From assembly GCA_052327205.1 (NCBI GenBank), contig CM126225.1:11532001-11596000 (forward strand): 64,000 bases of DNA, written 5' to 3'. The DNA is from Somniosus microcephalus. Its lineage: Eukaryota. Positions 4,870-41,162 of the stretch are shown in pieces. Made by a program: the position numbers and the translations under genes. Under the pieces are notes generated by a model, which was not told where the DNA came from, made no database searches, and was given only the letters and a program-made list of their open reading frames with translations. Every line of letters begins with the position of its first letter. Within the stretch, counting starts at the first letter, position 1.

Positions 4870-6340
4870 TACAGGAGCTGATGCATTTTGGCAGAAGGAA
4901 CAGGGAGAGGCAATATACACTTAATGGCACAGTTTTAAAGAGTGTGCAGGGACAGAGGGACCTGGGAGTTAATGTGTATAGGTCCCTGAAGGTGGCGGGA
5001 CATATTGAGAGAGTGCTTAGCAAAGCATATGGGATCTTGGGCTAAGTAGAGGTATTGAGTACAAAAGTAGAGAAGTTATGCTGAACCTTTATAAAGTGCT
5101 GGTTAGGCCACAACTGGAGTATTGCATCCAGTTCTGGTCACCACACTTTAGGAAGGATGTGAAGGCCCTTGAGAGGGTGCGGAGGAGATTGACCAGAATG
5201 GTTCCGGGGATGGGCAATCTTAGTTACAAGGACAGGTTGGAGAAGCTGGATTTGTTTTCATTAGAGCAAAGGAGGTTGAGGGGTGATTTGATAGAGGTGT
5301 ACAAGATTCTGACAGGTTTGGATAGGCTAGACGGGGAAAGGCTGTTCCCACTAGTTGATGGTACAAGGACTAGGGGTCACAGATTTAGGGGGAAAATTCA
5401 GTATTGCCCCATTTGGGGCGCCATTATCGGCCGTGCGCAAAGTTTAGCGCCTGGCGCTAATTATCGCCTCCGACGGCAAACTTGGCTTTTATCGCCCCTC
5501 GAGGTGATTGGAGCGCTAAATCAGGCGCTTCACACCTGTCTTAAGGCGCAAATGCCGAGGAGCGAGGCGCTACCTCAGAGCGCGGGCGAAGCAAGGAAGA
5601 GCAAATCAAAATGAACCTGCAAAATGTTGCTCAGTACCCAAAACTCATTCACACAGCATTGAATCTCTCCAGAAGTCTCTCTCTCTCTCTCTCTCAGAAT
5701 GCGTGGTGCAAAAATATCACCAACAAAAAAAGGCAGGAAGCGGTCGCCTTTAAATAGTGCTCCCCCAGTCCCTTTCTGACTGCAAAACGCTCCCCTCAAC
5801 CTGTCGTTGCTACCGGCAGGTGGTAAGGCAGGGGGTGCCACTCAATATCCGGTCCGGGGCGCTACTGGGGCGTTGCGCACTCGACTGACGTCACGATCTG
5901 CCGGTGCAGGAGATCGTGGCGGTAGTGTTTAGCGCTGCCGCAAAATGTCTAGTTAATTTCGCGAGCGGCGCAAACATCGCCGCGCCTGGGCGCTAGTTGC
6001 TTTGCGCCCCATTAGCGCCCTCTTAATGCGTTAACGGGCGGCGCAAGCAACTGAATTTTTCCCCCTTAAGGTTTTGGGCAAGAGATACAGGGGGGATGTG
6101 AGGGAAAACCTTTTTACGCAGCGAGTGGTGAGGACCTGGAATTCGCTGCCGACGGAAGTGGTGGAAGCGGAGACACACAATGTTTTCAAGGGGAGACTGG
6201 ATAGGCACTTGAGGGAAATAAACTTGCAGGGCTACGGGGATAGAGCGGGGGAATGGGACTGACTGGATTGCTCTACAGAGAGCTGGCTTGGATTCGATGG
6301 GCCGAATGGCCTCCTTCTATGCCGTATGACTCTATATGAC
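4870..6340 (+). mobile_element. CR1 LINE 3' fragment interrupted by a MITE
   Basis: ...TRGHRF at 5387 resumes as KVLGKRYRGDVRENLFTQRVV after 6068; CR1 tail ends near 6340. Confidence 0.9.
5388..6065. mobile_element. Harbinger-type MITE, 678 bp
   Basis: TIRs GGGGGAAAATTCAGT / ACTGAATTTTTCCCCC; 3-bp TSD TTA (5385-5387 and 6066-6068) inside a CR1. Confidence 0.92.
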
Positions 6341-24754: not shown

Positions 24755-26032
24755 AGAAACATAGAAGATAGGAGCAGGAGTAGGCCATTCGGCCCCTCGA
24801 GCCTGCTCCACCATTTAATGAGATCATGGCTGATCATCCAAATTCAGTACCCTGTCCCTGCCTTCTCCCCATATCCTTTGATCCCTTTAGCTTTAAGAAA
24901 TATATCTAACTCCTTCTTGAATATATTTAATGAATTGGCCTCAACTGCCTTTTGTGGTAGAGAATTCCACAGGTTCACCACTCCCTGGGTGAAGAAATTC
25001 CTCCTCATCTGTCCTAAATGGCTTACCCCTTATCTTTAGACTGACCCCTGGTTCTGGACTCCCCCGCCATCGGGAATATTATTCCTGCATCTAGTCTGTC
25101 TAGTCCTGTTAGAATTTTATAAGTTTCAATGAGATCCCCTCTCATTCTTCTAAACTCCAGCGAATATAAGCCCAATCGACCCAATCTCTCCTCATACGTC
25201 ATTCCTGCCATCCCAGATATCAGTCTGGTGAATCTTCGCTGCACTCCCTCCATGGCAAGAACATCCTTCCTCAGATAAGGCGAGCAAAACTGCACACAAT
25301 ACTCAAGGTGTGGTCTCACCAAGGCCCTGTACAACTGCAGCAAGACATCCTTGCTCCTGTACTCGAATCCTCTCGCTATGAAGGCCAACATACCATTTGC
25401 CTTCTTAACCGCCTGCTGCACCTGCATGCTTATCTTCAGCGACTGGTGCACAAGGACACCCAGGTCTCGTTGCACTTCCCCTTCTCCCAATCTATTGCCG
25501 TTCAGATAATAATCTGCCTTCCTGTTTTTGCCACCGAAGTGGATAACCTTGAATTTATCCACATTATACTGCATCTGCCATGCATCTGCCCAATCACTCA
25601 ACCTGTCCAAATCATACTGGAGTTTCTCGGCATCCTCCTCACAGCACACATGCCCACCCAGCTTTGTATCATCTGCAAACTTGGAGTTATTACATCTAGT
25701 TCCCTCGTCTAGATCATTAATATATATTGTGAAAAGCTGGGGTCCTAGCACCGATCCCTGCGGTACCCCACTAGTCACTGCCTGCCACTCGGAAAAAGAC
25801 CCGTTTATTCCAACTCTGTGCTTTCTGTCTGCCAACCAGTTCTCTATCCAAGTCAATACCTTGCCTCCAATCCCATGTGCTTTAACTTTACACGCTAATC
25901 TCTTATGCGGGACCTTATCGAAAGCCTTCTGAAAGTCCAAATACACCACATCCACTGGTTCTCCCTTATCTATTCTACCAGTTACATCCTCAAAAAATTC
26001 CAGTAGATTAGTCAAGCATGATTTACCTTTTG
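24755..26032 (-). mobile_element. CR1 (HER1-like) LINE, 5'-truncated, RT domain
   Basis: 330-aa ORF with YLDFQKAFDKVPH, SGVPQGSVLGP and KFADDTKL. Confidence 0.95.
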
Positions 26033-26277
26033 TTCATGACATACCAACTGAGGCACAGGCAGAGAGAGAGATCAAAGGTCTCAAAGGCCTTGCCCAACGT
26101 CAGGGATGTAACTATGAATAAGGCTTTGCCTAATGCTGTGGTTATAAACTGAGAGCACACGAAAAATTTCAAAGCAAGAGATCGAAATGTTTCCACTAGT
26201 GAATAAAGGTGAGGGGTTTAATATTGTAAATGATACCATTTTGCCTGAAGTGAGGTATCACAGTCGGTTGAGTCATA

Positions 26278-29150: not shown

Positions 29151-29658
29151 AATTTGTCTTTGCTAAAACAACCTAAAGTCAAATTGGGAAGACAACCATC
29201 CCATGTATTATGTGGTTTGTATTGGCTACAGATAGATTGGTTGCTAGGAGTATTGTCAGAGAATCATAAGCAATGGAGAGGGTGTAACATCTAACCCATT
29301 TCTGCAACCTAAAACGAAGCTCCAGTACATCCTATGACATTGACCATCTTGAGCAAGTGTGGCTGCATCATCTATAACACATTGGGAGGGGTTGTGGCCC
29401 AAGAGCTGGCAAAAAAGAACAAGCAAGGAGGAAGTCTAGAGAAATTGACGAGAGCACTGTAGGATGCAAGAACAACTAGGAAGAGAGAACCTAGGAACAC
29501 ACCACGCCACAGTGTGAAGCTGATCAAGTAGTGTTTACCCTTGCTCCCTAGCACAGGTAGGCTGGTGTCACCTGCACTAAGGATCATGTGTAGGGTTGCT
29601 GTAATGAAATCTGTTTGTCTTGATTCTGTATTCGTTTTGCACTCATGTATATTACCCT

Positions 29659-30059
29659 GTTCCTGGGACTAGGGACAGGGTCATGGGCAAGGCTTGGAAG
29701 CTAAGCAAGAGCCAGGTCTGGTTAGTACCTGGAAGGAGTGACCATTAGAGAAGACCAGGTGCAGAAAGTCACAGAATGGAGCCCTGAGGAGGGGCGGTTG
29801 GTACGGAAGGGGGCGGCTGGTGAGCAGGCCCGGGCGTTGGGCTGAAGATTGTCAGACAGGAGGAATGGTGGAAATGGAATGGCGGCGCGCACAGATGCAG
29901 CGGCTTTTGCTTCTCCCAGGACGGTGCTATTTACGTTTAATGTTAATGTTATTTGTACTGGACTCATGGGAGCTTGCAAGATCACATTTCGTTGTTCATG
30001 TACTTGTGCATTGTACAATGACAATAAAGTTGAATTATATTATTATTATTATATTATAT
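29659..30059 (+). mobile_element. 5S rRNA-derived SINE (SINE3-type) with Rex/Babar-like tail, inserted in the 5' LTR
   Basis: Absent from the 3' LTR; 11-bp TSD TATATTACCCT. 29693-29770 aligns to the 3' part of 5S rRNA (GGAAGCTAAGCA...CTGGTTAGTAC.TGGA...ACC.GGTGC). Ends GTACAATGACAATAAAGTTGAA(TTA)n. Confidence 0.8.
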
Positions 30060-30324
30060 TATATTACCCTCCCCCACGGTGTATAGTTTCACTTCCTCTT
30101 TCCCGACTAACCTGGAAGGTTCCAGGTCTTGGCTCTTGGCTCCGCCCCTGACTTCTCTTACATAAAGATCCCAGGATCTGTATGACTCATTCCTGTGAAC
30201 CAGTCGGCGTGTTGAGATGTTAGCTCTGATCTTAGTGATTAAAAGCCAACTTGTTTAAGTCTATAACTTCTAGTTTTGTGGTTATTGAAGGCCCATCAAT
30301 TTTTAATCACTAAAGAATACTAGG

Positions 30325-30906
30325 ATGGATCGACTCCTAAAACCAGAGCGTCTGGACTTGGATCCACATTCTGCTGAAGCATCAAATCAATTTGGACACT
30401 GGCTCAAATGTTTCGAACTCTTCGCGGGGGCCTCATCCACTAGCGAGGTAGATAAACTGAGTCTACTGACTACTCGCGTAAGTCATCGGATTTATTCGTT
30501 CATCCGGGACGCCACCTCTTACACGGAGGCCATCACTATCCTGAAGGCCCAATACCAGAGGCCGGTAAACGAAGTGTACGCCAGACATCTGCTGGCTACA
30601 CGCAGGCAGCGACCACAGGAATCAATGGACGATTTCTTACAGGGCCTAAAGGACCTGGTCCGGGACTGTAACTGCAAGGCAGTGATGGCCAACGCGTACT
30701 CTGACGAATTGGTCCGCGATTCCTTCATCACGGGCCTCAAATCGAATTATATCCGGCAGAGACTGCTGGAGAAGGAGGTCCTGGATTTAAAAAAGACAGT
30801 GGCCACTGCGCGATCGCTGGACGTGGCCCAGAGAAACTCTGACTCTTATTCTTCCGGCCATGCGGCCCTCACCGTCTCGTGCGCGCCGAGGGGGCCGCCA
30901 TCTTAG
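30325..30906 (+). CDS. Gypsy gag, N-terminal/capsid part (truncated)
   Basis: ATG 25 nt after the LTR; ARHLLATRRQRPQESMDDFLQGLKDLVRDC...VRDSFITGL is the Gypsy gag major-homology-like region. Confidence 0.85.
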   Translation: MDRLLKPERLDLDPHSAEASNQFGHWLKCFELFAGASSTSEVDKLSLLTTRVSHRIYSFIRDATSYTEAITILKAQYQRPVNEVYARHLLATRRQRPQESMDDFLQGLKDLVRDCNCKAVMANAYSDELVRDSFITGLKSNYIRQRLLEKEVLDLKKTVATARSLDVAQRNSDSYSSGHAALTVSCAPRGPPS

Positions 30907-30964
30907 AATCAGCCATCTTCCCCATCCAGGTCTCAGACCAGCTCTACGCCGCCGGAGTCCCCAC

Positions 30965-32047
30965 ACAGAAGTTCACCCAGGGGTCACCCGACTATACCAT
31001 TTTATAAAGTCCCGCAATCTGCCCCACTCCATCGAGGAGGTCAGGGCAATGACCAGAGCCTGCCGCATCTGTGCGGAATGCAAGCCTCGTTTCTACAGGC
31101 CTGACCGTGCACACCTTATCAAAGCCACACGGCCATTCGAGCGCCTAAGTCTGGACTTCAAGGGACCCCTTCCCTCTGCTGACCGTAACGTATACTTCCT
31201 CAATATCATTGATGAATATTCCCGCTTCCCCTTCGCCATTCCCTGCCCAGACATGACCAGTGCCACGGTCATCAAGTGTCTCTGTAATCTATTCTGCATG
31301 TTTGGCATGCCAAACTACATACACAGCGATAGGGGGACGTCATTCATGAGTGACGAGCTGCACCAGTTCTTGCCCTCGAAGGGGATAGCCACTAGCAGAA
31401 CCACTAGCTACAACCCCCGGGGTAATGGGCAAGTGGAAAGGGAGAATGCTACTGTTTGGAAGGCTGTCACGTTAGCCTTAAAGTCAAAAGGCCTTCCGAC
31501 CTCCCACTGGCAGGAAGTCCTCCCAGACGTGCTCCACTCCATAAGGTCTCTGTTATGTACTGCCACTAACGTTACCCCTCACGAAAAGATGTTCGTTTTC
31601 CCCCGGAAATCCACCTCGGGCATATCTCTACCCGCGTGGCTGATGTCTCCGGGGACAGTACTATTGCGGAAGCACGTGAGAGGCCATAAAACGGACCCCC
31701 TTGTGGAAAAGGTACAGCTCCTCCATGCAAACCCTCAGTACGCCTATATCGAATACTCTGACGCGCGAGAGGACACTGTTTCCATAAAAGACCTCGCTCC
31801 CTCGGGGAGCGGAGAGAACGATGGGAGACTACCCGATGAAGACCTACACTACAAAGAGACAGGATTCCCAGAGGTATCAATACCCAACTTTAACCTGGAG
31901 GACACTGCAGATAACCTGGAAGACACTGCGGAGGCCCGGACAGCGGAGGAACCAGAATCCACTCCCCTAGAGGCACCCCAACCGGCTTTGCGCCGATCCC
32001 TGAGAACTGCAAAACCTCCTGACAGACTCACTTATACCAACTTTTAA
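30965..32047 (+). CDS. Gypsy integrase (pol 3' remnant)
   Basis: HPG...CRIC zinc-finger remnant; catalytic LSLDFKGP, IHSDRG and NGQVERENA (DDE); uninterrupted to the stop just before the PPT. Confidence 0.9.
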   Translation, partial: TEVHPGVTRLYHFIKSRNLPHSIEEVRAMTRACRICAECKPRFYRPDRAHLIKATRPFERLSLDFKGPLPSADRNVYFLNIIDEYSRFPFAIPCPDMTSATVIKCLCNLFCMFGMPNYIHSDRGTSFMSDELHQFLPSKGIATSRTTSYNPRGNGQVERENATVWKAVTLALKSKGLPTSHWQEVLPDVLHSIRSLLCTATNVTPHEKMFVFPRKSTSGISLPAWLMSPGTVLLRKHVRGHKTDPLVEKVQLLHANPQYAYIEYSDAREDTVSIKDLAPSGSGENDGRLPDEDLHYKETGFPEVSIPNFNLEDTADNLEDTAEARTAEEPESTPLEAPQPALRRSLRTAKPPDRLTYTNF

Positions 32048-32827
32048 GAAACATCACCCCGATGGACTAAATCTATAGAAGGGGTGAATGTAATGAAATC
32101 TGTTTGTCTTGATTCTGTATTCATATTGCACTCATGTATACTACCCTCCCCCACGGTGTATAGTTTCACTTCCTCTTTCCCGACTAACCTGGAAGGTTCC
32201 AGGTCTTGGCTCTTGGCTCCGCCCCTGACTTCTCTTACATAAGGATCCCAGGATCTGTATGACTCATTCCTGTGAACCAGTCGGCATGTTGAGATGTTAG
32301 CTCTGATCTTAGTGATTAAAAGCCAACGGCCTAGAAATTCAGTTGCGTTCGCCAGCCGTTAGCGCCTTAGGAGGGGTAGATCTCGAGCGCTAGGCACTTA
32401 GCGCCTGGGCGCAGGACGATCTGCGCCTACGCCCAACTTCAGTAGACATTTAGCGCCGGCGCAAAGTGTTTGCGCGCGCTCAGCTGCGCGCGCAACTTAT
32501 GACGTCATTTCGTCGTGCAACGCCCTTTGTGCGCCCCAAACCGGAACTTCAGTCGCGCCCGCCCAATGTGGGCGTGGCGGTGTTAAGAACTGTGAAGTGG
32601 AACGCAGCAGAGGCCCTGCGGGCCTCGGGGAGCGCTAATTAAAGGGCACTTACACTGAACTATAAAGGCCAGCCATTTTGCTGCAATGACTTTTCTGCAA
32701 CGGATTTCTGGACAGAGACCAAGGAAGAGACCTTACTGATTTGGCCCAACATAGGAGAGGTATTTTTGGCTTCTGGCCAGAGCTTGGAAATTTGCCTCAT
32801 TGTGATTTCATTGTTTGCAAGTATATT

Positions 32828-33973
32828 ATGGGGGCTGCATGGGGTTCCAACCCTCAGTTCCAGCATTATGTGCAAAGGGCTCGCAGACGCTGTGTGAGAG
32901 GGGCAGCCATGCCTAGACACAGAGGGGGCATCAGGCATCAGCAACGTAGGCCTTACCCACTCAGGGAATACCGCCAGCAGGTGTCCTATCTCACCATGAC
33001 TGCCGCGCAGTGTGTTAAGAGGCTGCGCTTCAGAAGGGAGGTGGTTGCAGAGATCTGCCAGCTGCTTCACAGAGATCTGCGTCCACAGCTGATGTGCAGG
33101 ACGTCTCTGTCGGTGGAAGTGAAGGTCACGGTGGCTCTGAACTTTTATGCAAGCGGCTCCTTCCAAGCCGCTGCTGGGGACATAGCTAACATCTCCCAGT
33201 TCGCCGTGCATCGCTGCATCCGGCAGGTCACCGATGCCCTTTTCACAAGGAGACACCAATTCATCTCCTTCCCCATGACCCTAGAGAGGCAGGAGCAGCG
33301 TGCAGTCGGATTTGCGAGGGTCGCCGACTTCCCCATGGTGCAGGGCGCCATTGACTGCACGCATGTGGCTTTGCGGGCACCTATCGACAATGCCGAGAAT
33401 TACCGCAACCGGAAGTGCTACCATTCCCTCAATGTACAGCTGGTGTGTGACCACAGGCAGCGCATCCTAGCTGTCAATGCCCGCTTTCCAGGCAGCAGCC
33501 ACGATGCTTTTATCCTGCGCCAGACTACTGTGGCTGACATGTTCCAGGCACAGCCTCCCCCAAGAGGATGGCTTATCGGGGACAAAGGCTATCCTTTGTG
33601 TACATGGCTCATGACCCCGCTCCGCGTGCCCAGGACCCCTGCTGAGGAGGCATACAACGAAAGCCATCAAGCCACAAGGAACATCATAGAGCAAACGATT
33701 GGCGTCCTCAAGCAACGGTTCCGCTGCCTGGATCGCTCCGGCGGATCTCTGCAGTATTCGCCGGATAGAGTCTCCCAGTTCGTCGTCGTTTGCTGCATGC
33801 TGCACAACCTGGCTATCCGCAGGACTCAGGCACTGCCACCTCACGTTGGACCACCACCTCAGGAGGATGAGCAGGAGGACCATGAGGAGGAGGAGGAGGA
33901 GGAGTACCAGCCCAGGAGGGAGCCACAAGGTCCAAGGGCCGTCCGTCGGCGGCTTATTGAACGACACTTCTAG
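32828..33973 (+). CDS. Harbinger DDE transposase (HARBI1-like nuclease family), 381 aa from the first ATG
   Basis: HTH region (VALNFYASGSFQ...ISQFAVHRCIRQV); GAIDCTH, YRNRKCYHSLNVQLVCD, PGSSHDAFIL, GDKGYP and IEQTIGVLKQRFRCL; AATAAA at 34087. Confidence 0.93.
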   Translation: MGAAWGSNPQFQHYVQRARRRCVRGAAMPRHRGGIRHQQRRPYPLREYRQQVSYLTMTAAQCVKRLRFRREVVAEICQLLHRDLRPQLMCRTSLSVEVKVTVALNFYASGSFQAAAGDIANISQFAVHRCIRQVTDALFTRRHQFISFPMTLERQEQRAVGFARVADFPMVQGAIDCTHVALRAPIDNAENYRNRKCYHSLNVQLVCDHRQRILAVNARFPGSSHDAFILRQTTVADMFQAQPPPRGWLIGDKGYPLCTWLMTPLRVPRTPAEEAYNESHQATRNIIEQTIGVLKQRFRCLDRSGGSLQYSPDRVSQFVVVCCMLHNLAIRRTQALPPHVGPPPQEDEQEDHEEEEEEEYQPRREPQGPRAVRRRLIERHF

Positions 33974-34312
33974 GCCCCCTGTCAGGGAATGGCTTGTGGC
34001 AATGAAGGCACATGAATGCAACCGCTCCGCAAGCCCTCAGCCGGTTAACGCAACAACCACTCGAAACATCACACATGGACAAGCTGAATAAAGAAAAAGC
34101 TTTATTGAACAAACTCAGGGCCCTTCCCACATGAAACCCAAAAACAGACAACACCCCCAAAAAACAGTCAAAAACATATCTCACTCCCACAACCTGGGGA
34201 GGAATAACAAAACTTATCTATCCAAATGGCCTTCATCCTCGGCCTTACCAAAAGAACCCCCCCCATAGACAACACAACCACCCCCATATAAAAAAACATT
34301 TGCCAACACACT

Positions 34313-35649
34313 CTACTTTGTGTGCCGAGAGGGCGAGTCCTTGTCCAGGCTTTTCCGGCCCCTGGCCAACCTGCTGCTCCGCCTCAACCTGGGCCCTGTG
34401 GGTGCTGCAAGGCTGGGGGAAGGCTCCTGAGGGGCACATTGCGTGACGGCAGATGCCCTTGGGGGTCGGCCTAGACGAGCTCTGGCCCTCGAGGGGCCGG
34501 CTGCCGACTGCTGCAGCTGTGGCTGGGCAGCATCAGTCCCTCCAGCAGCTCGTCGCAGCTTCGCTGGGGGAGTGGCAGTGGCGGCTGCAGCAATGGGGGC
34601 AAGCTGGCTGATGCCAGGCGCTCGCTGCTCGCCTGAGACACTGGCACTCGGCCGGGCTGGCACTGCAGCAAGCGCAGCAATCTGGTGAAGGCCAGACCGC
34701 TGTGCTGCTGCAGCGCGGCGGGTGCCCTGGCGATGCCTGCCTGACACAGCGAGTGTGGCAGCAGTGAGTGCCCGTACTGCCCTGGTCTGTGCCCGCATCA
34801 GACCAGCCAGTGACTGCACGGCACCACTGATCAACTGTCCACTCGCTGCCTGTGCTGCCCTGAATTCGTCCCGACTCGCGTCCTGTGCTGCCCTGAATTC
34901 GGCCCGACTCGCGTCCTGTGCTGCCCTCAATTCGGCCCGACTCGCGTCCTGTGATGCCCCGAATTCGGCCCGACTCGCGTCCTGTGATGCCCCGAATTGT
35001 TCGAGACCCCTGGCCTGTGCTGCCGCGAGTTGTTCGAAACCCCTGGCCTGTGAGGCCCCGAAATCGGACACACTATGAGCCAGGGACTCAATGGCCTCAG
35101 GCAACTGTGCCACAACCCCCATGAACTCGGTGTGCCGACGATCCGAGTCCGCGGACATTTGATCAAGGAGGCGCACCTCCTGGGCGAGGACCGTCTCCGG
35201 ACTGGAGGCCGGACTCTCCCTCTGGGGAGAAGGCCGCCGAGCTGCCCGACCCTTCCCGCGTGGCTGCACGCCACTGGGCCCAGCAACTACACTCCCCTGC
35301 AACACTTCCCCCCTCTGGGGAGAAGGCAGCCGAGCTGCCCGACCCTTCCCGTGTGGCTGGACGCCACTGGGCACAGGAGCTACACTCCCCTGCAACACTT
35401 CCCCCCTCTGGGGAGAAGGCAGCCGTGCTGCCCGACCCTTCCCGCGTGGCTGGACGCCACTGGGCACAGGAGCTACACCCCCCTGCAACACTTCCCCCTG
35501 GCTCTCCTCCAGGGAAGACGTGTCCCCTCCATTGCCATCCCCTGGCGCGGATGAGGGTTCCCCCGATGGGCCGCCTTCCTCTTCCTCCTCCTCGTCCTCC
35601 TCTTCCGAGGGATTGACACTCACAGCTTCAGGGACCTCCTCCTCACCAG
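34313..35649 (-). CDS. Harbinger Myb/SANT partner protein, exon 3 (acidic, repeat-rich, basic tail)
   Basis: Acceptor CCTTCCTGCTTTCAG; a phase-1 join to exon 2 is in frame with the 436-aa ORF; minus-strand AATAAA at 34101-34106. Confidence 0.8.
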
Positions 35650-35808
35650 CTGAAAGCAGGAAGGCACAAGAGTAGCTTTAGAGTGAGGACAGGGCATCAG
35701 CGAGGGAGGCATGAGTGGTGGCATTCTGCGCATTGGTCGGACAGTGGCAAAGGATGTAGATCTGAAGCGCAAGGGGAACGAGAGAGGTCCAAAAGGTCAT
35801 GTCCTTAC

Positions 35809-35971
35809 CATTGGGGCCCAGCACAGGGTCGGCATCTCCAATTGCAACGGGGCCAATCACCCGGGCACCCATGAGTCGACCCACGCGCTCCTCCAGGTCA
35901 CTGAGCTGCTGGAACTGGGGACGGCCTCCCCCGGTGACAGTCCGGCTCTTCAGATTCTGGGCCAGCTTGGC
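35809..35971 (-). CDS. Harbinger Myb/SANT partner protein, exon 2
   Basis: CCTTTCTCTTGCAG|AKLAQNLKSRTVTGGG...LSDLEERV...|GTAAG; 163 nt. The TGGG motif is typical downstream of Myb/SANT-like domains. Confidence 0.85.
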
Positions 35972-36256
35972 CTGCAAGAGAAAGGACGGCCTCTAAGTAC
36001 AGTGTGGTGCCCTGTTGTTGTGTGCACTGCCTCCCATGGTCGAATAGCTTGGCCAGTGTGGTGCCCTGTTGTTGTGTGCACTGCCTCCCATGGTCGAATA
36101 GCTTGGCCACTGTGTAAAGTGCAGAAAGTGCAATTGATGTTCATGCCAGTGCCATAGCTGCTGGATGAGGGCTGGCCATTAGGCCTTTGAGGTCCCTTTG
36201 CCCATAATGTGAGGTGCACATGCAAGGATGAGGAGGACACTGGAAAGGGTACTCAC

Positions 36257-36493
36257 CCTGACAATCCGAGTGAGGTCGTTAAACTTTTTCCGGCATTGGA
36301 CAACAGTCCGGGGGACATCGCAGGTGGCTGTGACCCTCTGGGCGATATCCCTCCAGGCTCTCCTGTACACCCTGTTGGGAGGCTTCTTGCCACTGTCCGG
36401 GAACAAGATATGGCTTCTCTTCTCCAAAGCCCTAACCAGCACCTTTAAATCATGGCCAGAGAAGCGCTGCGCTCGCTCACGGGCCCTCTGCAT
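36257..36493 (-). CDS. Harbinger Myb/SANT partner protein, exon 1 (DNA-binding domain)
   Basis: RFSGHDLKVLV...AWRDIAQRV...RTVVQCRKKFNDL is a Myb/SANT-like trihelix; 79 codons then a GTGAGT donor. Confidence 0.9.
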
Positions 36494-38612
36494 CCTTCCT
36501 GGCGCTATTTCTCTCCAGCAGCAGTGTTTAGGCCTAGCTGGAGGGCTGCAGTATCCAGGGCGTGGCAGCAGACCAAGTCGACCCTTCCCCCTTTAAGAGC
36601 TGGCCGGCGCCAGGGTGTCTGCTGTCAATCAAAACATGACCGCACCTGCGCTGCGCCCGGCCTCGGCGGTATCAGTCTGCACCGCCGGCTTAGCGCCTAA
36701 GGATAGCCGTGCATCGCCAGTTTTAGCGCTCGAGCAAACTCCTTGGCCAAAGCTACTGAATTTCGGCGAACTGCCCTCCACTTTCCGGCGGGCGCAAACT
36801 TTAGCGGCCGCCCGACTTTACCGCCCCAAAAGTGGCTATACTGAATTTCTAGGCCAACTTGTTTAAGTCTATAACTTCTAGTTTTGTGGTTATTGAAGGC
36901 CCATCAATTGCCAAGTGCCCAACCCTGTCCAGGATTGCCCTGGGGTCTCCAGGAATTAAAAACTAATCTCCAGGACCCTGCTGCCAGCAAAACCCAGGAG
37001 AGAAAACATTGGGACGTTAAAAAAAATTGTGTTTATAAAAAAAATTAATTACTCGAACACTTTTGTTTACAAGTCATAAAAATACTGGACGTGGGAAACA
37101 ATGCTGGTTGGCTGACAGTCAAGAATCATCCAATCGCGTAATGATGAGTCTGCTTGCTTTCCGATTGGCTGTGGGAAGGCAGGGCACCATGAGAATGGAC
37201 ATGTTGGGCGACCAATGGCAGGAGTGTAAGGGGGGGCGGGGCAGTTGGAGATCATGTGATGAAACCTCCAAGAATATGTCCAACCATAGTTGCCGACCAT
37301 AATCACGTGTACTCACGGCTACCATTTTGAATGGCGTACCACTTCGGGACTGAAATCAGCAAAACTGATTTCCGCTGTTCGTGTTGAAGGTACTGTTTGC
37401 ATGAAGCTGGGAAAACATTTGAGGAGAAATCATCTCTGCACAAAGACGATTTGCATGAATCGGATAGTAAGTTTGAGATTGAGGGAAGCTAACTGGGGCG
37501 TAGGAAAAGCCGACATAAAACTTACCAGCAAGGTAGCTTGGCGAGGGGCAGATAGATGAATGGATAAACTGGTGGATATATAGATTGATTGGTAGAAAGC
37601 AATGTGCAGTCAGTATCGTTAATGTGGCTTTGATTTAAGAAGTGAGAAAGATGATATAATGCCCAAGGTAGGACTTCTTCTGTCAGTATTAGTAACAAAT
37701 GGAAAAGGCTGAATTTAAAAAAATCTTCAATCTATCGGCAATTTCCCCTTCATGCATAAAACAGTGTAACCCTCCTGCTCTGACAGAGTTTCAACAGCAG
37801 GCTGATTGAGCATTACTGGTTGACAGTTTGATAAAAGAGATAAAGCTGCAATTGGCAGCTCGCTTCCAGTAAGCAGGCAATTGAGTTTGAAAAGGATGGA
37901 TTCTCAACATTTACTCAGAAAATCTCACAGATCTAAAGGCAGTTAGAACATAAGAACATAAGAAATAGGAGCAGGAATGGGCCACTTGGCCCCTCGAGCC
38001 TGCTCCGCCAGTCAATAAGATCATGGCTGATCTTGGGCTCAAAGCCACTTCCCCGCCCGCTCCCCATAACCCTTCACTCCCTCATCTTGCAAAAATCTGT
38101 CTCTCTCCACCTTAAATGTATTTAATGACCCAGCCTCCACGGCTCTCTGGGGCAGAGAATTCCACAGATTTATGACCCTCTGAGAGAAGAAATTCCTCCT
38201 CATCTCAGTTCTAAACGGGCGACCCTTTATTCTGAAACTGTGCCCCCGAGTTCTAGATTTCCCCACGAGGGGAAACATCCTCTCTGCATCTACCTTGTCG
38301 AGCCCCCTCAGGATCTTATATGTTTCAATAAGATCACCTCTCATTCTTCTAAATTCCAATGAGTATTGGCCCAACCTGCTCAACCTTTCTTCATAAGTCA
38401 ACCCCCTCATCTCAGGAATCAACCAAGTGAATCGTCTCTGAACTGCCTCCAATGCAAGTATACCCTTCCTTAAATAAGGAGACCAAAACTGTACGCAGTA
38501 CTCAAGGTGTGGTCTCACCAATACCCTGTACAGTTGTAGCAAGTCTTCCCTGCTTTTATACGCCAACCCCCTTGCAATAAAGGCCAACATTCCATTTGCC
38601 TTTTTGATTACT

Positions 38613-39280
38613 CAATTCAATTTAATTTGCCATATGTAACCAGTACAAGTACAAGTAGAATGGAATGCTTACTCCCCGTGGGGACACGTCAGCTATTTTT
38701 ACAGCGCCGTGCTCAGAAAATCAATTCTTTGGCATCCCGTGGCAGTGGGAGCACGATGTCCCTCAGCCGCTCCGTCCTCCTCGTCACCGCAGCCTCCTCC
38801 TCACTGTTGCCGGCTCGGCTCCACGTGTGGTGGCCTGCTTCTCCCGCTCACCCTCAGGCCACCATTCCCGGCTCCCCTCCTCCCAGTCGGACTGCGAGTC
38901 ATTGTGGCTGCTGCTGCTGCTCGATGCGCTGCGCTGCCTCCGCCCGACTCGCCGAACACATCCTCCGGTCGCTGCGGCCTCCACCTCACCGTCGCCGGCT
39001 CCATGGTCCGATGGCCCGGGCCTGTTCTCCCGCTTCCGGTCCGGCCTCTGGCCGCCATGCTCGGCTCCCCTCCTCCCAGTTGGAATGCCTTCCCGCTGAG
39101 GAGCAGCTGGCCGACGTGCCCTAGCGGGCCGACGTGGCTGCTGCTGCGTCCCGATGCGCTGCGCTGCCTCCGCCCGACTCGCCGAACACCTCGCTCTGGT
39201 TGCGGGAACGAGCGGCGAGAGCGGGCCGCCCGAAGCAGGGAGAGCGCGCTAGCGCTGGACCGTCTCGGGCGCCATCTTGA
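38613..39280 (-). mobile_element. GC-rich non-autonomous retroelement (Rex/Babar-like ends)
   Basis: Clean insertion in a CR1 with ACT duplicated; minus strand starts TCAAGATGGCGCCC and ends GGCAAATTAAATTGAATTG. Confidence 0.65.
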
Positions 39281-39599
39281 ACTTGCTGTACCTGCATGCT
39301 AACTTTTTGTGTTTCATGCACAAGGACCCCCAGGTCCCTCTGAACTGTAGCATTTTGTAATCTCTCTCCATTTAAATAATAATTTGCTTTTCTATTTTTC
39401 CTGCCAAAGTGGATAACCTCGCACTTTTCCACATTGTACTCCATCTGCCAAATGTTTGCCCAATCACTTAGCCTGTCTATATCCCTTTGCAGATTCTTTG
39501 AGTCTTCTGCACAACTTGCTTTCCCACCCATCTTTGTATCATCCACAAACTTGGCTACATTACACTCGGTCCCTTCATCCAAGTCATTACTGTAGATTG

Positions 39600-40416: not shown

Positions 40417-41162
40417 GGGGGAGAAATTCAGTTGGTTGCGCCACCCGTTAGCGCCTTAAGAGGGCGCTAAGTGGGTCGCAAGCCAACTCGCGCCCGGGTG
40501 CGGCACTGCCCACGCCTCCTGCTAAATTCCGCGGGACGTTAGTGGTGGCACTAACCGTTAGCGCTGCGTCGCTGCCGATGACGTCATCGGTGTGCGGAGC
40601 GCCCCGCTGATATCCCGGCCGCGATATTCGGGAGCGCCCCCCGATTTACCGCCGGACGCTATGTCCGACAGGGTCAGGGTGGTGTACCTGCGGCCGGGGA
40701 GGCGCAAATTAAAGGCGAGGTGCGGAGTGGCCATTTTTGTTGTTGGCCGCCTGCCAGCACCTGCCTGCGCTCCCGTCCCCGGCCTCCTGAACGCCCCCCC
40801 CCCGTGGAGTGCTGGCTGCGCTCTGCACTCCAAGAGCCCAGCACGAATTCTCCTCGGTGCTGGGCTCTTTTGCCTGCACTCCCGATCGCGCTGCATAAGG
40901 CCCCTCCCCTTTAAGGAGGGGAGGAAGGCCAGCAATACCGCAGCGCGACGTGCCGCGGCGTGTGGCGCTGCGGCACGTTGCGCCACGATATTCACTCGCA
41001 GCGCCCCAAGAGGGATGCGGGGCGCCTCCAGTAGTGCCCCGCTTCCCTTTGGGGCGCAACCGCTCAATTTCCGGTGCGGGGGCGCAAATGTTTCCGGGGC
41101 GCTACTTTTAGCGCCCTGGCGAGGCTGGCGCCCCAAACGGGGCTATACTCAATTTCCCCCCC
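40417..41162. mobile_element. Harbinger-type MITE, 746 bp
   Basis: TIRs GGGGGAGAAATTCAGT / ACTCAATTTCCCCCCC; TTT on both sides; right end GGCTATACT.AATTTC is shared with the autonomous element. Confidence 0.88.

Follow-up and report, generated by a model that had tools for sequence, protein, structure and literature searches.

A Ty3/Gypsy retrotransposon at the locus

The window, i.e., the whole 64,000-nucleotide stretch of DNA analysed here, contains an LTR retrotransposon of the Ty3/Gypsy group on the plus strand (29600-36906), with LTRs running from TG to CA, a short target duplication and a polypurine tract. The domain order gag, protease, reverse transcriptase (RT), RNase H and integrase was found in 4 of 4 natural relatives, and the window copy retains only gag and integrase. 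Its 5' LTR follows the left target-site duplication GTTGC (29595-29599, delimited by a 5-bp rule taken from relatives), and the first piece, which begins with TG (29600-29658), has 3 mismatches in 59 positions with the corresponding part of the 3' LTR (32089-32147). The second piece (30071-30298) ends with CA at 30297-30298. Between the two lies an unrelated insertion of approximately 400 nt (29659-30070), with AATAAA and a (TTA/TA)n tail at its end, which is flanked by an 11-nt duplication (29648-29658 and 30060-30070). Reads from other copies of the element continue past its boundary at 30071. This insertion occurs once within the window and resembles, and may be, a truncated non-LTR element. 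Without insertions the LTR measures around 287 nt.

The second piece of the 5' LTR carries the segment of main concern here, a putative self-primer at 30232-30244, referred to below as the arm. It includes ATTAAA (30238-30243) and AGT (30234-30236, 11 nt from the arm's 3' end). Directly after it comes GCC (30245-30247), which supplies the 5' side of a conserved small stem located at the putative cut site; its partner is GGT at 30280-30282 or GGC at 30290-30292. The CA of the LTR is followed by a one-base spacer, A at 30299, and then by the primer-binding site (PBS, 30300-30313), the complement of the arm. Roughly half of the reads have one T fewer in the T run of this site. The N-terminal part of gag (30325-30906) ends at a stop codon; it has 84 homologues and is 51% identical to residues 1-188 of the natural polyprotein L001. 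An integrase remnant follows at 30974-32047 (rve, E 5e-18), with 68% identity to L001 over residues 845-1122. The part between the two, with protease, RT and RNase H, has been deleted; this copy cannot replicate alone and would need the RT of another copy.

A polypurine tract, identified by its sequence and by a layout shared with relatives, is located at 32077-32088, with AA adjoining the 3' LTR. The first piece of this LTR (32089-32327) carries a second copy of the arm and hexamer at 32309-32321, and the last piece (36859-36906) ends with CA and matches the end of the 5' LTR without a mismatch; overall, of 296 positions compared between the two LTRs, 5 are different. The right target-site duplication, ATTGC (36907-36911), matches the left one at 4 of 5 positions. 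The 3' LTR is interrupted, 6 nt past its arm, by a Harbinger/PIF-like DNA transposon (32328-36858, no strand assigned) with a 16-nt terminal inverted repeat, an AAC duplication, internal tandem repeats of 33, 93 and 54 nt, and a DDE_Tnp_4 match (E 8e-38) in an open reading frame at 32690-33973. Harbinger-like end sequences are also present at 40422-40464 and 5833-6058, and a LINE-like element occurs twice on the minus strand of the window, in copies that have diverged (70-86%), at 24758-26033 and 37955-39583, with an RVT_1 match in 25023-26033.

The earlier note on this DNA had placed the end of the LTR at CATCAA, on the basis of the target duplication, and this proved wrong. Reads from other copies run into mixed flanks directly after the canonical CA at 30298 (33 reads in RNA run X23 and 125 in X24, with an agreement of 0.49 and 0.39, respectively), and TG..CA ends with a perfect 5-bp duplication were seen in 9 of the 11 distinct related insertions for which the flanks on either side could be read. 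Seven of these 9 are unambiguous and two begin with A, like that of the window; the other two insertions (L014 and L035) have mismatched duplications. A CAA end with a 4-bp duplication was rejected on both grounds, and together they assign the window a GTTGC/ATTGC duplication with 4 of 5 matches and make A30299 a spacer.

The LTR is complementary to the site that follows it

As the earlier note had observed, no TGG follows the 5' LTR, and the bases at 30301-30313 are exactly those of 30232-30244 in reverse complement, a match of 13 bp. When the LTR was shuffled with its dinucleotides preserved, and complementarity to a stretch beginning at most 3 nt from the LTR end was scored, 13 Watson-Crick pairs were reached in none of 5000 shuffles (the best was 12, once); with G-U pairs allowed, 14 pairs were reached in 2 of 5000. 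A 13-mer with its complement at most 240 nt upstream was found at 34 of 63,687 positions in the window, so that beside the length of the match its position and its conservation count as evidence. Both these shuffles and the per-locus shuffles of relatives described below led us to reject a chance origin of the helix. The additional G-U pair that was thought to extend the helix to the LTR edge is not a constant feature: the fifth T that it requires is missing in 15 of 33 reads of X23, 62 of 111 reads of X24, and 8 contigs of X1.

The complementarity is conserved with changes on both sides

The window gag was aligned with 38 of its 84 homologues, and this alignment was used to find related loci. 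The relatives comprise the best 80 of 138 confirmed stretches of metagenome contigs and two loci in genome contigs; 15 pattern matches in viral contigs included no relatives. Of these 82 loci, 72 were used, as their match starts at residues 1-4 of gag, and 70 of them have at least 85 nt of upstream sequence. For each, the longest perfect stem was determined, and its 3' arm was free to lie at any point of the 130 nt that precede gag, thus the register of the helix was not imposed by the search. A perfect helix of at least 12 bp was present in 48 of the 70 loci and absent in 22, and in 40 of the 48 it directly follows CA-A(T) or CA-G, although many of the loci come from few samples, so that these counts overstate their independence. 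Shuffled sequences (30 per locus) gave mean stems of 5-7 bp and never exceeded 12 bp.

At 78% DNA identity the loci form 21 clusters, and the best member of 17 has a perfect helix of 12-18 bp, nearly always starting one base past the CA of the LTR. Four clusters have no perfect helix in the 5' region: L013 shows a 12-bp match via its 3' LTR that is not preceded by CA-A, L034-36 have an imperfect helix in the usual register, and no helix was found in the 5' region of L019 and L063/64. In cluster 16, only one of six judged members has a perfect helix.

For a closer comparison, 18 representatives were used: the window and the best members of 16 clusters (two from cluster 1), leaving out L050, in which the helix is offset. 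Since they were chosen as best members, their perfect pairing is by construction; what is informative is how the letters vary. Gag identity among them is 41-79% (median 51%), and they possess 16 distinct PBS 12-mers. Helix positions 5-8 each show three to four different Watson-Crick pair types, and in L026 the A/T core is altered on both sides of the helix. The own LTR is the best partner of the PBS in 17 of 18, and when PBS and LTR were swapped between representatives only 4 of 306 combinations reached 12, all among families that share a 12-mer. The PBS is preceded by CA-A in 16 of 18, by CA-A-T in the window, and by a degenerate sequence in one. Loss of the complementarity in relatives had been set beforehand as the observation that would speak against self-priming; instead, the pairing is kept while letters change on both sides, LTR by LTR, and no single fixed host RNA can follow such a site. 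A gag tree of 23 rows, with 6 of 20 inner branches well supported, does not order these events.

A compact Gypsy lineage without a chromodomain

The relatives are approximately 4.0-4.5 kb long with a single gag-pol frame of around 1,190 amino acids. A chromodomain (Pfam chromo) was found in none of 14 distinct integrase-bearing polyproteins (16 scans minus one duplicate and one without integrase; L081 ends at its contig end), nor in the integrase remnant of the window. Membership of the Gmr1 group, in which integrase precedes RT, was rejected, as integrase comes last in 4 of 4. Among the best 120 of 1565 proteins at E 1e-20, RT or gag matches came from Trichuris, Trichinella, Actinostola, Apostichopus, Styela, Narcine, and Mustelus, so that the lineage ranges from cnidarians to sharks and includes a cnidarian, nematodes, an echinoderm, and a tunicate. 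Two of its elements, L081 and L082, lie in contigs labelled as bacterial metagenome-assembled genomes, which probably reflects host DNA that was binned in.

Sequence features of the arm

Counted back from the 3' end of the arm, base 1 is A in all 18 representatives, base 9 is T and base 10 is G in 16 each, and base 11 is A in 13. Transcription starting at the A of this AGT, a motif that we take to resemble the metazoan initiator, would give a primer of 11 nt, the length of the Tf1 primer. The window arm ends in four A, yet its AGT lies at the same distance, indicating that AGT tracks the end of the helix and not the hexamer. Shared descent could be another cause of its conservation, and no conserved TATA box was detected 30-45 nt upstream of the arm end.

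The earlier note had also pointed to an overlap between primer and poly(A) signal. This overlap is common, as the arm contains ATTAAA in 10 and AATAAA in 4 of the 18 representatives; it is not required, as the remaining 4 keep the helix with neither hexamer. Pairing is thus better kept than the hexamer. Where a hexamer is present, its end coincides with that of the primer in 13 of 14 representatives. The related idea that the helix masks the poly(A) signal of the 5' LTR is possible, though so close to the cap masking is perhaps unnecessary. Upstream of gag in L001 (~900-960), the arm ends with TTTAAA, and the small stem has an ATTAAA in its loop, 5 nt downstream of the arm; here, the hexamer may have shifted out of the primer.

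The bases directly after the arm read R in 18, C in 17 and C in 16 of the 18 representatives, and GGY occurs in the loop of 17, against 6.1 expected (reached in 0 of 100,000 simulations). The resulting RCC/GGY stem is significant at the level of single loci in only 2 of 19, so that its support comes from the aggregate. Reading AGGY as a downstream promoter element was rejected, since its spacing varies. The distance from primer to PBS is 24-72 nt across the lineage, and the gag ATG follows 13-81 nt after the start of the PBS.

Predicted folding and RNA reads

When folding was begun at the arm, the helix was predicted with a probability of at least 0.92 in 19 of 19 sequences, and with 40 nt added upstream this remained at least 0.88 in 17 of 19, the exceptions being the window (0.20) and L030 (0.43). 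In the window, the primer helix competes with an alternative pairing between U5 and PBS of practically equal predicted energy (-13.0 against -13.1 kcal/mol). The minimum free energy structure of 30190-30340 lacks the primer helix (z -0.25), and its probability ranges from 0.07 to 0.92 for RNAs ending at 30335 and from 0.91 to 0.97 for RNAs ending at 30380. The U5 stretch involved (30266-30292) is similar to the arm and able to form pairs with PBS and leader (30300-30326), and echoes of this were noticed by eye in L037 and L002; the alternative pairing could possibly act as a conformational switch. The Tf1 'pretzel' has a third duplex, and the pairing that would correspond to it, with the leader 3' of the PBS, did not exceed shuffled sequences (p<=0.05 in 1 of 19).

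In the RNA runs X23 and X24, reads of either strand span the LTR and its junction with the PBS, and run X21 has 0 reads at the element. Neither a start at the arm nor a poly(A) site or a primer end showed up among the reads listed for X23 and X24, runs whose strandedness is unclear. In region 30512-30589, X23 has 11 reads from two start places with many T-to-C differences on the plus strand (30519-30577) that are absent from contigs; this pattern would fit A-to-I hyper-editing of antisense RNA, or a diverged copy.

The element's own RNA as the probable primer

The primer of minus-strand synthesis must anneal directly after the 5' LTR, and it is because this site is paired by the element's own LTR that self-priming is likely. 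The conservation of the pairing with letter changes on both sides supports the tRNA-independent self-priming proposed in the earlier note well, and we consider it highly probable that self-priming in some form operates in the lineage. Specifically, we propose, with a probability of roughly 0.7, that minus-strand synthesis is primed by the 5' end of the element's own RNA, in the manner of Tf1. Across the lineage, the stretch of LTR that pairs with the PBS has A as its last base, and the pairing keeps a constant register, one base past CA. The last A of a retroviral tRNA primer gives the same register relative to CA, that is, one base followed by the T that is paired with the terminal A of the primer. 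According to this proposal, which is read from the DNA sequence, transcription would start at or near the conserved AGT, and the transcript's initial ~11 bases would fold onto the PBS. RNase H of the RT would then cut between the helix and the short RCC/GGY stem, and the freed 3'-OH would prime the copying of U5 and the rest of R. With the hexamer at the 3' end of the primer, the RNA from the 3' LTR would extend 10-30 nt beyond the cut position, the usual distance from hexamer to cleavage, and so provide the overlap for the first strand transfer; the hexamer of the 5' LTR would be both near the cap and paired. The earlier note had gone further and suggested a distinct priming mechanism. Nothing points to a distinct chemistry, as the layout fits the Tf1 scheme with, probably, an 11-nt primer.

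Both LTRs carry the arm (at 30232 and 32309), so covariation cannot tell the 5' from the 3' copy, and the RNA's own 3' end might prime instead: the arm of the 3' LTR, on the same or a co-packaged RNA, would pair with the PBS after its tail had been cut or trimmed to the helix. The coincidence of primer and hexamer ends in 13 of the 14 hexamer-bearing representatives would suit such a primer. However, strand transfer would then require R to extend upstream of the arm, and a 5' primer agrees better with an AGT fixed 11 nt from the helix end and with the stem that lies immediately 3' of that end. We know of no precedent for priming by the RNA's own 3' end and regard it as unlikely. We likewise give little credence to the broader scenario of an animal-wide Gypsy lineage in which self-priming evolved apart from Tf1/sushi and a poly(A) signal turned into the primer end, and which, in its boldest form, has the 3' LTR copy, cut or trimmed to the hexamer, act as primer, tying 3'-end processing to primer formation.

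A purely regulatory helix, which would mask the 5' poly(A) signal or control gag translation while some host RNA primes, is slightly less probable again. The AATAAA or ATTAAA in 14 of 18 arms and a PBS that abuts the gag ATG in several families speak for it; however, the 4 representatives without a canonical hexamer keep the helix, and the site right after the LTR, where the primer has to anneal, varies with the LTR arm and not with a fixed host RNA. Priming by a host tRNA or tRNA half, with the LTR match as a by-product, is very improbable, as the PBS starts with TGG in 0 of 18 representatives, its 16 distinct 12-mers are A/T-rich and each match their own LTR, and Rfam gave no match at E<=1 in 29500-30600. 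A TGG upstream of gag in L013 is doubtful as a tRNA site because of the 12-bp self-match to its 3' LTR further on. ARAGORN reported a tRNA-Gly at 40538-40612, near a Harbinger-like end, which by eye is unlike a real tRNA and probably spurious; between it and the complement of the PBS, no more than 6 nt are shared.

Comparison with known self-priming elements

Self-priming with a three-duplex structure is described for Tf1, Tf2, Tj1, Tosmo, and Tf1/sushi chromoviruses (PMC4600332, PMC7175516, PMC5341516, bioRxiv 10.1101/2022.12.06.519325). For Tf1, the primer is given as its first 11 bases, with the RNase H cut between bases 11 and 12 (PMC7175516). The present lineage shares with Tf1/sushi the Ty3/Gypsy domain order, the lack of a TGG-type tRNA PBS, an LTR segment complementary to the site after the LTR, an LTR end at CA and, with Tf1, probably an 11-nt primer. 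Of the three duplexes of the Tf1 structure it shows the central one, and the third was not above shuffles. Unlike Tf1/sushi, it lacks a chromodomain, has a Gag with two zinc knuckles and an RT with YLDN (3 of the 4 polyproteins that were read), combines the primer with a poly(A) hexamer, and separates primer from PBS by only 24-72 nt. Moreover, chromoviruses are reported to be missing in cnidarian, nematode, echinoderm, and tunicate groups (PMC2774666). With no chromodomain and with hosts in invertebrate groups that are reported to lack chromoviruses, the lineage should not be filed in Tf1/sushi. As to where it does belong, the Cigr-1 clade or a Mag-related branch of non-chromoviral Ty3/Gypsy is a possible lead: Cigr-1 of Ciona carries LTRs and one frame that is similar in size, and a tunicate relative is among the matches of the lineage.

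Self-priming has also been predicted for the TAR lineage (Houba and Osr-1, plant Ty1/copia) and for moss Tcn1, based on an LTR-PBS complementarity of at least 10 bp that starts 0-5 bp after the LTR (PMC6317226). The lineage described here shows this complementarity and position as well; unlike it, TAR and Tcn1 belong to another superfamily or another branch and live in plants. With TAR, self-priming had thus already been proposed outside Tf1/sushi, although so far it has been tied mainly to yeast Tf1 and its kin. We found no account of self-priming in a non-chromoviral animal Gypsy lineage in the literature covered, which is not proof, as most subscription papers and Repbase notes lie outside that coverage. 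We consider the finding a real, lineage-wide variant of known self-priming, with a mechanism that is read from sequence. If true, tRNA-free priming would be no speciality of chromoviruses, being widespread in an animal Gypsy lineage, and this would bear on whether self-priming is ancestral or arose repeatedly; an ancestral hairpin primer has been floated in earlier work (PMC3601003). tRNA fragments are described as targeting the tRNA-complementary site (PMC7472051), and elements such as these would be without that target. PBS-based annotation would likewise overlook or mislabel them. Finally, a leader of less than 100 nt that holds start site, primer, poly(A) signal, and PBS would make a compact substrate for studying how RT cleaves an RNA duplex.
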